A stretch of DNA of 38,801 nucleotides from an uncultured archaeon (GTDB lineage: Archaea > Thermoproteota > Bathyarchaeia > Bathyarchaeales > Bathycorpusculaceae). Numbering within the stretch: position 1 is the stretch's first letter; every line of letters starts with the position of its first letter. The DNA lies in contig CAWENF010000011.1 in assembly GCA_963810275.1 (NCBI GenBank), positions 1 to 38,801 of the forward strand, written 5' to 3'. Of this stretch, positions 20,517 through 24,715 are shown one piece after another. The notes below the pieces were generated by a model. It had not been told where the DNA came from, did not search any database, and saw only the letters and a list, made by a program, of their open reading frames with translations. The position numbers and the translations under genes were made by a program.

Positions 20517-21464
20517 TTAGGGTCGGTAGCCCTTTAGCGTGCAAAGCGCTATAGCTGCTGCTGTTAAGTCAGCGGTTGTGCCTGGGTTAGTCGTGTTTCC
20601 TTTTCTACGCAGCTTTAAATCAAGGTGTTTAAGCGCAGCCTTGCCAGCAACGGTTTCGGGTCCGCCTAGTTCAACCACTTTTTTTGCTTCAGTTTGGATT
20701 TTTTGAGCTTTTGCTTTGCCGATTTTGCGTGCTATAAATGTGTCTGGGCGCTCCGAAAGGATTTTGAGGAAAACGTTTGTAGCTGCAACGTCGAAGGGTT
20801 TTGAGTTCAACGCCTTCGTCAGATATGGACATGTTGAGTCGAAGGTTATAGGGAAATTGTTTACCCACTCAAAGCATATGTCGTCGTAGGTTGAGGCTAT
20901 TTCAAAAACCTTAAACAACGTTATGTTCTTTTTGAGGAGCTTGTGTTTTGAGCGGGGGTCGTTTAAGTCAAGTTCAGGCGATTTACCTAATCCACTGGGG
21001 ACAGCGATGTCTATTGCTTCGTATAGGTGCACCGCATCCAATGCTGTCGTCGCATGCACGACAGAGTTTAGGTTTCTGCGAAGCGCACCCATATCCATTG
21101 TGCCGTCGCTTCTTATGTGTGTCATGCCTGCTGCAGCCGCCAAAGGCACAAACAGCATCACTGTACCCAAAATCGTGTTGCCGCCATGCTGCCATGCCAT
21201 CACATCCGACATGGTGGACTTGATTAACTCACCGACGCCCAACTGTTCCAACTCAAGCTTACAATCAGATGCCGCCGAACCGCGATACGCTGCAGCTTCA
21301 AAGCTGGGACCCGCCGCAATTGCTGAAGCTAGAAAATGCGTGACATTTGTAACCTCAAAACTACTGCGAAAGCTCACGTTGCCAGGTTTAGACACACTCA
21401 CTTCTAAGGCAATTGCGAGTTGGAGGCATCTGCTGATGTGTTGGGCTTTCTGCTGAGCGCTCAT
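20517..21464 (-). CDS. citG: CitG/MdcB-family triphosphoribosyl-dephospho-CoA synthase homologue
   Basis: LEVSVSKPGNV, GGNTILG, PDTFIARK, NPGTTADLTAA; start trimmed to MSAQQK. Confidence 0.88.
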   Translation of the reverse strand: MSAQQKAQHISRCLQLAIALEVSVSKPGNVSFRSSFEVTNVTHFLASAIAAGPSFEAAAYRGSAASDCKLELEQLGVGELIKSTMSDVMAWQHGGNTILGTVMLFVPLAAAAGMTHIRSDGTMDMGALRRNLNSVVHATTALDAVHLYEAIDIAVPSGLGKSPELDLNDPRSKHKLLKKNITLFKVFEIASTYDDICFEWVNNFPITFDSTCPYLTKALNSKPFDVAATNVFLKILSERPDTFIARKIGKAKAQKIQTEAKKVVELGGPETVAGKAALKHLDLKLRRKGNTTNPGTTADLTAAAIALCTLKGYRP

Positions 21465-21490
21465 ACAGGTAACACAAGGGATAGTGCGCC

Positions 21491-21510
21491 AAAAAAGGTT
21501 TATTAAAGTA
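21491..21510. promoter_or_regulatory. Putative bidirectional TATA between citG and nucleotidyltransferase A
   Basis: AAAAAAGG-TTTATTAAA centred in a 79-bp divergent gap; reads TTTAATAAA on the minus strand. Confidence 0.5.
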
Positions 21511-21543
21511 TCCAAAACTTAGCCTCAACCGAGACGAACAGGC

Positions 21544-22560
21544 ATGAAGGCACGTGAAGGAGACTTAATCCGCACACAAGCAAACGTTGTTTTCGACGTG
21601 AAAGGCGTCACGCATCCAGAAGGCAAAATCATCGCTTTCCCACGCTTTATACCCCAAGCAGACGGTGCAAGGAAAAGCGGAAGGGGCAACTATGGCAAAG
21701 TCTATAGCCTAACAGACCGTTTTCGTTATTTGCAGCAAAATCATCCTGATCTTATCGTTTTTGACCCAGTGTATGACGAAACGCTTTGCGAGGTGCCAGT
21801 AGAGCAAATCGCAGAAGTCTATCGCCCACAAGACAAGCTGGCGCAATTACGTGAAGCCAAAACGTTGACGCCGCTGGAGCAGAAAGCGCTTAGCCTAGCC
21901 GTTGAGCTCAAGGAGCAATCGGGCATTCCGTGGAATGCTGTTGGCGTTTCAGGCTCCATCATGGCGGGTTTAACCACATCCACCTCAGATATCGACCCCC
22001 TCGTGTATGGCGTTGAGAACAGCCAAAAAGCCTACCGTGCCCTTCAGGAACTACGACAAAAACCGAGTTCAGGCTACAAACCATACACCAAAGCAGAGCT
22101 TAAGGCCCTGTACGATTTCCGAGTAAAAGACACCCGCATGAGCTTTGACGACTTTAAGCAGGTGGAGTCTAGGAAGGCCTTTCAGGGCATGTATTTAGGG
22201 GTGGATTACTTTATTCGGTTCCTAAAGGATTGGAACGAAACCGCTGAGCAGTATGGCGAGGTAATCTACCATAATAGTGGGTACCTAAAAATTCAAGCTA
22301 CTGTCAAAGACGCCGCTGATGCGCTTTTTACACCCTGCACCTACCAGTTGGAGGACATCAGAGTGCTGGATGGACCAGACTTAACGCCGATAACTGAGAT
22401 TTCATCTTTCCGCGGCAGATTCTGCATGCAAGCAAAAGCAGGCGAACAAATCCAAGCGCAGGGTAAAGCCGAATTAGTAACAAACAAAAAAACAGGCAGC
22501 AAACACATCCGCCTCATATTGGGCAATAAACCTGATGACTACATGATTCTACAGTGTTAA
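21544..22560 (+). CDS. Uncharacterised Pol-beta-superfamily nucleotidyltransferase, paralogue A (COG1665-like)
   Basis: GVSGSIMAG...SDIDPLVYG; N-terminal REGD..KGVTHP; C-terminal SFRGRF..A..GE.I...G..E. Confidence 0.82.
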   Translation: MKAREGDLIRTQANVVFDVKGVTHPEGKIIAFPRFIPQADGARKSGRGNYGKVYSLTDRFRYLQQNHPDLIVFDPVYDETLCEVPVEQIAEVYRPQDKLAQLREAKTLTPLEQKALSLAVELKEQSGIPWNAVGVSGSIMAGLTTSTSDIDPLVYGVENSQKAYRALQELRQKPSSGYKPYTKAELKALYDFRVKDTRMSFDDFKQVESRKAFQGMYLGVDYFIRFLKDWNETAEQYGEVIYHNSGYLKIQATVKDAADALFTPCTYQLEDIRVLDGPDLTPITEISSFRGRFCMQAKAGEQIQAQGKAELVTNKKTGSKHIRLILGNKPDDYMILQC

Positions 22561-23630
22561 TGCAGCGCTTTTAGAACTTGTTCGTAATACCGTTTACAGT
22601 AAGTCAACGTCACCTGCAAATAGCTGCCGGAGGGTGCTTGGACTTCCTCAAGGTTACCCTCTACAAGCACCGTTTCGTCGCGCTGAACTTGTTGCCGGAA
22701 CTCTTCCATGTAGCTGAAAACCCGCACTGCTTCGACGGCTTCTTTTGGTCCTGATAGGACTTCTAAGGGTTCGATGCCGTATATTGAGGGTATGAACGGT
22801 CCGTCGTCGTCTGCGGTTATTCTGGCTTTTAGCTTAACCCAGCCCTTCTGGATTATGCGAGCTTCGGGGTTGTATTCGTTTCTGATATCATCCCAAGCTT
22901 TTACGGGCTCGAATTCAGCTTTAATGATTCTGCCGCTGTGCTTTCGGTCGTCGTAAAGCCCATAGATGTATTTGCGGCGTTGGTGCCAAACAAAGTCGGG
23001 TACGGTGAAGTTTTGGTATAGCCATGTTTTGCCCTTCATTGCATCTTCCGAGGCGAACTCGTTGGTTAAACCCGATGTGGGGTCGCTGTAGAGTTGCTGG
23101 TTGGCTTTGACGATACGACGGTTTTCGGCTTTGCCGTAAATTGTGAAATCGATGTCGCTGTATTTTGGGTGATGGAAGCCGTGTAGCATGGAACCGAAAA
23201 CGCCAAAGCTTGATTTGGATACGCCGGATTTGGCGGAGACAATTTCGAGAGTGCTCTCCATTGCTGATAGCAGTGGGTCTGTTGGTCCCTGCTTAAGTAG
23301 CTCTTGGAGTCTGGGCTGAGGTTGGCGGGTTTCTACTATTAGGTTTTTTGGGACGCCTACTAGTTTTGATCCAAGCATCTTGTGCTCAACTATGTATTGA
23401 GGATATTGTTCGGCGACGAGTTTCATGCCCTCGTCGTTGTAAAATTTGTAGTAGAGTTCACTTCTGCCTTCCCGTGGAGCGCGTGGGTCATTTGAGTTGA
23501 AAACTTTACTGCTCGCGTATTCCGCATCGCACAGGTAAGCACTTGGCGGGTGGCTGTAGCCGAAAACCCGGAAAAGTATGCCTTCCACAGATTGGATGGC
23601 ATCTCTGTCTCTGAGATTTAGGTTGGCCAT
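22557..23630 (-). CDS. Uncharacterised Pol-beta-superfamily nucleotidyltransferase, paralogue B
   Basis: GVFGSMLHG...[19 protein letters not shown]; start trimmed to [10 protein letters not shown] (ATG at 23630), overlapping the stop of paralogue C. Confidence 0.82.
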
Positions 23631-24715
23631 ATATATTCCTCTTCCGAGGTGGCAGTTCCCACAACAACTTGGTAAAACGTGTTCCCATCCTTGGTTGAGG
23701 TGGCTTTTTCTAGGGTGCCTGCAACTTTGATGGTTTGTCCTGCGCGTGCAACGTTTCTGTAGCAACCAATGTTAGAAGTGACCACTGTTGGTATTTGTTC
23801 TAAGTCGAGTTCGGATTGGGGGTCAAGGGGTTTGTAGTTTCCGATTGTGTAGATTGCTGGGCGATACATGGTTTGAGTGTCGTTGCAGACTGTGGCGGTA
23901 AAGCGGACAGCGGCTAGCGGAATGTAGGTGTAGTCGCCGTACTCTCCGCTGATTTCCTCTGCTTTTCTGGTGGCATTGTACATCCAGATTTTGCCTTTGT
24001 ATTTGCCTACAAAGTGGCGGGCGGCTTCTATGCGGTTACCCGAGATGTAGGTTAGTTTGCCTTGGTTGACGAGTCGCTGGAGTGTTTCCTCTACGCAGCG
24101 GAAGTTTCTAGCTCCGTAAACAACGAAATCGATGTCACTTTCTTGTGAGTGCATCTCAAGCGCAGTGGAACCGTGGAGTCCCAAGTCGGTGTAAGGTACG
24201 CCTGATTCGTTGTGGACTAAATCAATGATTTCCAGGGCCATCTCCTGGAATGGGTCTGGTTTTTCTAGGTTTTGTAGCCAGACGAGGCGGTCTTTGGGAA
24301 CAAAAACCTGCTGGATTTTGTTTAGTGGCGTGGTGATGAGTTCTTTGCCTCTGGTTTTGTCGTAGAAGAGGTAGTCAGGGAAGTTTTTTCGAAATGCCTC
24401 AATAAAGGTTTGATAGTTTTTAGCTGTGTAGAGTTTTTCGGCGCGGAACAGTTGTGATGTGAGGGGGGCTGTGCCGAATTTCCATGTGCGTGTAAGCATT
24501 TGTACGTCGAAGAGCTCGCGGTATTTGGCGGGTATGTATTTGAGGAATGCAAACACTCGGTCTTCGGGATGTTCGTAGCCGAATGTGTTCATAATGAAGC
24601 CGTCGGATGTGACAAATGTGTCGCCGTCAGCTGGTATCCAAACAGAATATTCGTCTGCCGTAAACTTTGCACCGCCACAAATAGATTTAGAGAACACTAA
24701 AAAACATATTGCCAA
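23618..24715 (-). CDS. Uncharacterised Pol-beta-superfamily nucleotidyltransferase, paralogue C
   Basis: GLHGSTALE...[19 protein letters not shown]; start codon uncertain. Confidence 0.82.

Follow-up and report, generated by a model that had tools for sequence, protein, structure and literature searches.

CitG displaces the adenine of ATP and thereby forms an alpha-glycosidic 5-triphosphoribosyl adduct on the 2'-OH of dephospho-CoA. CitX or MdcG subsequently forms a phosphodiester with loss of pyrophosphate (PPi), the acceptor being a serine of the carrier protein. Tetrahydromethanopterin (H4MPT), which carries one-carbon (C1) units in methanogenesis, anaerobic methane oxidation, archaeal acetogenesis, and bacterial methylotrophy, has a tail in which an alpha-ribofuranosyl-5-phosphate sits on ribitol and is phosphodiester-linked to 2-hydroxyglutarate. 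We know of no enzymes assigned to the steps that add this second ribose and the phosphate-hydroxyglutarate. Here, we describe a module of four genes on a 38,801-nucleotide stretch of DNA (GenBank assembly GCA_963810275.1, contig CAWENF010000011.1; hereafter the window) from an uncultured soil or sediment archaeon of the Bathycorpusculaceae (Bathyarchaeia, Thermoproteota). It consists of a citG-like gene and three paralogous genes of nucleotidyltransferase (NT) type, NT-A, NT-B, and NT-C. On balance, these four genes probably serve to build the non-pterin tail of a methanopterin-type C1 carrier.

In bacterial methylotrophs, the gene table of Methylomonas DH-1 has mch (methenyl-H4MPT cyclohydrolase), an alpha-L-glutamate ligase, and a triphosphoribosyl-dephospho-CoA synthase in successive entries (PMC11533326), while a passage on Methylosinus gives its H4MPT island as mch-orf5-orf7-fae (PMC3615186). 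The product of orf5 is named as the glutamate ligase MyfB in part of a further report (PMC8141765). From gene order in these two different organisms, we infer that the methylotroph orf7 is the CitG-like gene, a match of gene order rather than of compared sequences. According to a passage in Kaster et al (2011; PMC3087415), the non-pterin part of methanopterin takes at least nine steps and involves about seven unknown proteins. The literature searched yielded no assigned enzymes for side-chain synthesis of a methanopterin-type cofactor, and no biochemistry or genetics on a role of CitG-like or NT proteins in cofactor synthesis. Likewise, no function was found assigned to the archaeal CitG-like gene or to the NT family, the key methylotroph genetics papers and their supplements lying outside this search.

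In the window, the citG-like gene (20517-21464, minus strand; 315 aa) and NT-A (21544-22560, plus strand; 338 aa) diverge from an AT-rich intergenic region of 79 bp (21465-21543), as read directly from the sequence. NT-B (22557-23630, minus strand; 357 aa) is convergent with NT-A, has 4 nt in common with it at the stop codons, and overlaps by 13 nt with NT-C (23618-24715, minus strand; about 359-365 aa), which lies upstream of it. A, B, and C are the only NT copies in the 2.26-Mb genome. The mch gene (27308-28270, plus strand; PF02289, E 1.4e-113) is located 2.6 kb from C as a context gene outside the module. An earlier, sequence-only reading of this DNA had described the 79-bp gap, both overlaps, and the distance to mch, and the open reading frames (ORFs) bear out this layout.

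The arrangement is typical of its lineage. Within the genus, citG and A are divergent and about 70-125 bp apart in 12 of 18 genomes, lie within 1.2 kb of each other in two, and are found on separate contigs in two; mch adjoins citG or sits within a few kb of it in several genomes of the genus. Of 12 genomes that belong to the order's other families, 7 have citG and A at a distance of 0.03-3.2 kb. The closest public loci, taken as the best 80 of at least 576 relatives of a 20-row clade-A alignment, are all of Bathyarchaeia type. In 50 of these 80, citG and A diverge across a gap below 200 bp (about 60-110 bp); citG is located further upstream in 9, otherwise arranged in 10, and outside the locus in 11. 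B is present in 69 of them and B together with C in 63, mostly with overlaps of 13-19 nt. Moreover, in eleven genomes from several unrelated families, an NT gene begins 30-60 bp after citG on the same strand, and in the complete genome G129 an NT gene is placed immediately upstream of citG, again on the same strand.

The two families also occur together. Among the genome and 30 relatives, 25 contain both CitG and NT, none contains CitG only, and two contain NT only (G009, 56% complete, and G027), whereas four contain neither (G004, 71% complete, G022, G026, and G028). In a phylum sample of 201 genomes, the NT profile is matched in 90 and PF01874 in 91, which corresponds to 81 genomes with both, 9 with NT only, 10 with CitG only, and 101 with neither. 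Fifteen of the 90 NT matches are weak with the three-sequence profile used; five weak matches that were retested with a 127-sequence profile all improved, four to E-values of 1e-36 to 1e-41 and that of G098 to 9e-15. Since related genomes are not independent, these counts describe a pattern rather than test it statistically. Adjacency across many families, together with 81 genomes that have both genes versus 19 that have one, supports the functional coupling of citG and the NT family that had been read from the window alone.

A different combination is seen in the 98%-complete genome G208, in which a CitG-like gene converges on an adjacent mch (C8:44347-46323) and the NT profile found nothing. 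Thus, a CitG-like gene can occur with mch yet without the NT family. In G039, the search gave no citG, and in-frame stops interrupt both one NT paralogue (four stops, C50:11957-12979) and mch (three stops, C4:2340-3273), which looks like a joint decay of the pathway, assembly errors being the alternative. Two further loci (L086, L107) contain a module of Bathyarchaeia type, 60-63% identical to A, on contigs filed under the names of bacterial metagenome-assembled genomes (Limnocylindrales and Sulfotelmatobacter); the bacterial labels are likely due to mis-binned contigs.

Across genomes, the module displays a strong but imperfect association with RFAP synthase and mch. The RFAP synthase model TIGR00144 is matched in 87 of the 201 genomes at E up to 1e-5, in 55 of them above the curated cut-off. 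We counted RFAP synthase at E up to 1e-15, which yields 72 genomes and drops 15 with matches at about 1e-6 as generic GHMP-kinase likeness. On this count, 69 genomes have both CitG and RFAP synthase, 22 have CitG only, 3 have RFAP synthase only, and 107 have neither. The mch gene (PF02289) is present in 50 of the 201 genomes, of which 46 contain the NT family and 41 contain CitG, and 44 NT-positive genomes are without mch. Two families (f23 and f28) have CitG and NTs with no clear RFAP synthase, yet mch is present in all of their genomes. Among the control genomes, CitG is matched in E. coli, M. jannaschii, H. volcanii, S. acidocaldarius, and M. acetivorans. RFAP synthase is found in exactly the last four, i.e., the archaea with CitG, while citrate-lyase acyl carrier protein (ACP) and CitX are confined to E. 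coli. NT family members additionally occur in cultured Desulfurococcus and Staphylothermus.

The gene neighborhoods point in the same direction. ORFs were called in 32 fetched loci and clustered, and the recurring clusters were annotated. In families other than that of the window, citG and the NT genes lie beside genes for an MptA-type GTP cyclohydrolase (PF02649), MptE (PF01973), MptD (PF04038), and RFAP synthase; further neighbors encode an MptH-like pterin-binding protein (Pterin_bind + DUF6513 + DUF4346), DUF447, and a DmrX-like flavoprotein with two Fe-S motifs. Mpt-type neighbors of the citG/NT pair are seen in seven loci (L019, L020, L023, L032, and L033-L035), ftr is found beside NTs in four (L025, L029, L030, and L126), and mch is near the module in three (the window, L021, and L030). 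DUF447 bridges the citG loci and RFAP synthase: elsewhere it directly adjoins citG, in six loci, and in the window's own genome it is next to RFAP synthase on contig C22 (34119-37793), side by side with the genes for an MptH-like pterin-binding protein and an S component of the energy-coupling factor (ECF) type. Of the options raised by the sequence-only reading, the tailoring of a C1 coenzyme is backed by these neighborhoods with Mpt genes, DUF447, ftr, and mch. In the same genome (92.6% complete), MptA, MptD, and MptE were not found by tblastn with Thermoproteota representatives; a precursor may be imported, or other enzymes may make the pterin part in this organism.

Genes for S components of ECF transporters (PF07155/PF12822, weak matches) are also immediate neighbors of the citG-like gene in six loci of different families (L017, L021, L026, L028, L029, and L125), and in G066 such a gene is located beside MptH-like and RFAP synthase genes. 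In addition, a winged-helix protein of about 160 aa (cluster c8) adjoins citG in four loci (L021, L024, L027, and L028), in one of which it is fused to a PfkB-type kinase, and is encoded in the window's genome at C22:26556-27026. This protein may regulate the module.

The CitG-like protein matches PF01874 with 228.6 bits (E 1.5e-67, cut-off 27) over profile positions 2-283 of 284. Against the NCBIfam equivalogs for CitG and MdcB (TIGR03125, TIGR03132, NF002315, and NF007503), its best score is 54 bits, at cut-offs of 272-477, and the similarity is limited to the C-terminal third. Only 60 C-terminal residues can be aligned to E. coli CitG (30% identity), and PDB entry 3h9p is matched at E 3.8e-15. 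A full-length PF01874 score, combined with equivalog scores far below cut-off, marks the gene as a distant member of the PF01874 family and not as a CitG/MdcB equivalog. The absence of citrate lyase, malonate decarboxylase, and ACP genes that had been noted for the window extends to the whole genome, which at 92.6% completeness contains no match to ACP (PF06857), CitX (PF03802), MdcG (PF10620), or CitF (PF04223).

Pairwise BLASTP identifies A, B, and C as real paralogues and excludes chance likeness (A/B, 25% identity, E 9e-22; A/C, 23%, E 2e-30; B/C, 26%, E 2e-15). Their alignment conserves G21, H24, P25, G134, G137-S138, S148-D149-I150-D151, and Y155-G156, so that the shared architecture proposed earlier, 'G..HP' followed by 'GS-x9/10-SDID...YG', reappears in the three-way comparison with the DxD kept in each protein. 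His24, G134, G137-S138, D149, D151, G156, G307, and E310 are invariant in 127 NT sequences, and E232 comes close to invariance, being kept in at least 90% of 70 NT sequences. Likewise, G146-S147, S158-D159, and D161 in NT-B as well as G176-S177, S187-D188, and D190 in NT-C are invariant among 54 orthologues each. Since the catalytic motif is kept in all aligned orthologues of both, B and C look like active enzymes.

Among Pfam models, the NTs match only the core model NTP_transf_2 (PF01909), and this weakly, with 27.8 bits for B, 21.9 for C, and 17.4 for A, at a cut-off of 21. An AlphaFold2 model of NT-A based on the 127-sequence alignment (pLDDT 97.3, pTM 0.93) is built of three parts, namely an N-terminal beta domain with His24, a Pol-beta core, and a C-terminal barrel with G307 and E310; a second model, comprising residues 1-236, reaches a pLDDT of 95.0. 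The barrel resembles an oligonucleotide/oligosaccharide-binding (OB) fold, in agreement with the similar C-terminal beta domain anticipated from the sequences, and the invariant E310 lies within it. The hG[GS]-x9-13-Dx[DE] motif on a predicted Pol-beta core fold assigns the NTs to the Pol-beta nucleotidyltransferase superfamily.

Within this superfamily, the NTs stand apart. Neither the whole chain nor the half chain of NT-A has a Foldseek match in the PDB at E up to 0.001. The C-terminal part resembles the OB folds of SSB, PriB, and lysyl-tRNA synthetase (Foldseek probability up to 0.96), and residues 1-236 weakly resemble the poly(A) polymerases PAP-gamma and Pla1 as well as CdnC, NF90, and Cid1 (best E 0.033). 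Sequence and profile searches of the PDB with the NTs found no solved relative, no Pfam model matched the N-terminal domain with its invariant His-Pro or the OB barrel, and an NCBIfam scan of A, B, and C returned nothing useful. None of the three matched the CitX (PF03802) or MdcG (PF10620) models at E up to 0.1, and the 127-sequence profile compared with E. coli CitX gave an hhalign probability of 0.9%. Any kinship with CitX and MdcG is therefore reduced to the generic Pol-beta GS...DxD motif, which is all that profile comparison detects. For a heterodimer of B and C predicted from paired alignments of 54 rows, the score was 0.01, with the mark set at 0.32, a result that speaks neither for nor against pairing. 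The NT family is moderate in size: in a library with one representative per 50%-identity cluster, the three-sequence profile reaches 1392 clusters at an E-value limit of 0.001, and 408 remain when the limit is tightened to 1e-30.

The window and 28 fetched loci supplied 54 NT ORFs for a phylogeny; two, shorter than 250 aa, were dropped, and a maximum-likelihood tree of the other 52 proteins separates four clades. Window A belongs to clade A (20 rows, support 93), as do 8 of the 9 NT genes that are located no more than 200 bp from citG. Clades B (8 rows) and C (6 rows), each with support 100, contain in this tree only sequences from the order of Bathyarchaeia to which the window belongs. Elsewhere, A is most often accompanied by clade D (18 rows, support 99), to which the single copies of Desulfurococcaceae and of the family of G129 belong. 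In the window genome and its family, A, B, and C are present and D is absent. The three orphan paralogues of the sequence-only reading are thus found here as described, but the family as a whole consists of four old clades rather than three.

Family memberships, paralogy, fold, synteny, and co-occurrence form the observed basis on which we assign the four genes to the methanopterin tail, and all steps of the mechanism are inferred. The CitG-like protein would use ATP as ribosyl donor, displace the adenine, and transfer a 5-triphospho-alpha-D-ribosyl group onto a hydroxyl of a pathway intermediate; the proposed acceptor is the ribitol 5'-OH of aminophenyl-deoxyribitol-pterin. NT-A would take the triphosphate as its 'NTP'. 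An alcohol, 2-hydroxyglutarate in classical H4MPT, would attack the alpha-phosphate, PPi would be released, and the phosphodiester of the tail would be left, which amounts to CitX/MdcG chemistry on a small molecule rather than on a carrier-protein serine. The two CitG/CitX-type reactions map onto the two tail-building steps of H4MPT; the CitG-like enzyme would act first and clade A second. B and C would probably form further or alternative phosphodiester links, resulting in a lineage-specific tail, or serve other acceptors. As a tentative extension, which may well prove wrong, we propose that ATP rather than phosphoribosyl pyrophosphate (PRPP) donates the second ribose, that NT clades A-D use the triphosphoribosyl intermediate of the CitG-like enzyme as the 'nucleotide' when attaching hydroxyglutarate, and that B and C add further or different groups to give an undescribed tail variant of Bathyarchaeia.

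Several points weigh against an assignment to the methanopterin tail. Of the 91 CitG-positive genomes, 22 are without an RFAP synthase at the level of TIGR00144, and nine of the 201 sampled genomes have NTs but no CitG. Five genomes (G022, G026, G028, G221, and G124) have mch, and neither CitG nor NT was found in them with the queries used; hence, the module is dispensable for mch, or analogues exist. In database look-ups, NT members were seen only in Thermoproteota/Bathyarchaeota, as judged by a search from the Desulfurococcus member and by the best 80 of at least 576 relatives. Near the module in the window, mch is the sole C1 gene, the cluster of DUF447, RFAP synthase, and MptH-like genes being placed on contig C22. 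Further, some of the loci with Mpt genes (L023, L032, and L033-L035) were chosen after RFAP synthase had already been seen near citG or an NT gene, so that the sample is not free of bias. On the chemical side, White's work with cell extracts reportedly identified the donor of the second ribose as PRPP and not ATP, which counts against an ATP-donor scheme. In the alignments, a third catalytic carboxylate of the NTs is not obvious, with no invariant acidic residue between D151 and the OB domain. Moreover, three or four paralogues exceed the two proposed steps, and the OB fold together with the weak likeness to poly(A) polymerases would also fit an RNA enzyme.

As RNA enzymes, the NTs would tail, repair, or modify tRNA or small RNAs, their OB fold would bind nucleic acid, and the link to citG would reflect a ribosyl-phosphate modification of RNA. 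Such a role would agree with the likeness of the C-terminal domain to SSB, to PriB, and to the anticodon-binding OB fold of LysRS, with poly(A) and poly(U) polymerases as best weak matches of the catalytic half, and with the genes for aIF-1A and aIF2-alpha just beyond C in the window. However, no Foldseek match reaches E 0.001, and the translation-factor neighbors are not conserved in other families, whereas the Mpt, ftr, mch, and citG neighbors are. In addition, the families without CitG, RFAP synthase, and mch in the sample (f16, f20, f25, f33, and f36) are also without NTs, and f22 and f27, with one weak RFAP-synthase match each, also have no NTs, CitG, or mch. We consider a function in RNA metabolism unlikely. 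A protein target was the other option of the sequence-only reading: the CitG-like enzyme would make triphosphoribosyl-dephospho-CoA and the NTs would attach the prosthetic group to a carrier protein, forming a new system of the holo-ACP type. The clear PF01874 membership, the Pol-beta motif that the NTs have in common with MdcG as a class, and the tight coupling of citG and NT genes would be expected for such a system. Set against this, the genome has neither ACP nor CitX, MdcG, or CitF, and the archaeal controls with CitG are likewise without ACP. The CitG-like protein falls far short of the equivalog cut-offs and aligns to E. coli CitG over no more than 60 residues, the NT profile is practically without CitX signal, and the conserved neighbors are small-molecule cofactor genes, among which no candidate carrier protein recurs. 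Modification of a protein in the manner of citrate lyase has accordingly lost ground, and we give it little credence.

With a small molecule as target, the module could instead serve another C1 or redox cofactor, by building a side chain of the methanofuran or F420 type, or it could salvage or remodel an imported precursor. The neighboring ftr and mch use both methanofuran and H4MPT; an ECF-type S component is located beside citG in six loci and beside the MptH-like gene in the window's own genome, and the failure of tblastn to find MptA, MptD, and MptE in this genome would suit an imported precursor. The recurring neighbors, however, are pterin and RFAP genes rather than Mfn or Cof genes. Methanofuran has, to our knowledge, no ribose-phosphate unit, and the phospholactate link of F420 is made by enzymes of its own, CofC and CofD. 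Together, these points leave a different cofactor only a slim chance.

We therefore prefer a role of the four genes in building the methanopterin tail, for which the module yields named candidate genes and a simple chemical scheme. If this role is true, CitG/CitX-type chemistry extends from protein prosthetic groups to a free cofactor, and the whole NT family, which at the stricter threshold comprises 408 clusters and has no specific Pfam model or solved structure, would gain a function. The members in cultured Desulfurococcus and Staphylothermus allow experiments that are independent of uncultured Bathyarchaeia.

The boundaries of the module genes depend in part on the choice of start codon. 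The longest ORF of the citG-like gene begins at TTG 21515, and the ATG at 21464 yields the 79-bp gap to A. Within this gap, the AT-rich TTTATTAAA could be a TATA box for either direction. For NT-B, the longest ORF extends to 23765, and the start adopted here is the ATG giving MANLN; NT-C starts at TTG 24715 or GTG 24697. One contig from an RNA library, 270 nt long, has the same sequence as positions 23755-24024, inside gene C, and gives a weak hint of its transcription.

Elsewhere in the window, the genes for aIF-1A (24977-25279) and aIF2-alpha (26055-26849) are placed on either side of an ORF of 175 aa without Pfam match (25490-26017), a homologue of which is found near citG in L029. A CTP-dependent riboflavin kinase domain (PF01982) fused to an N-terminal helix-turn-helix is encoded at 16971-17660; genes for a tetrapyrrole methylase (14756-15652), a rhomboid protease, an M48 peptidase, and a metallo-beta-lactamase-fold protein are located near it.

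Compared with known systems, the module resembles the CitG+CitX and MdcB+MdcG pairs in that a PF01874 enzyme is encoded beside a partner of nucleotidyltransferase type. Their two-step logic, a triphosphoribosyl adduct followed by a phosphodiester with loss of PPi, is also the logic that we propose for the module. In contrast to these pairs, no carrier protein, lyase, or decarboxylase accompanies the window genes, and the acceptor would be a small-molecule cofactor intermediate. Unlike CitX and MdcG, the NTs are three-domain proteins of about 340 aa that occur as 1-5 paralogues and give no detectable CitX or MdcG signal. With the Pol-beta superfamily (PF01909; poly(A)/poly(U) polymerases and CD-NTases), the NTs have the GS-x9/10-(S)DxD motif and the predicted core fold in common, but they differ in that no structural match reaches E 0.001 and that their His-Pro N-terminal domain and C-terminal OB barrel have no Pfam model. 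The methylotroph island mch-orf5-orf7, as far as the gene table and the passage cited above describe it (PMC11533326, PMC3615186), would be like the window in that a gene annotated as CitG, presumably orf7, lies by mch in a user of a methanopterin-type cofactor.

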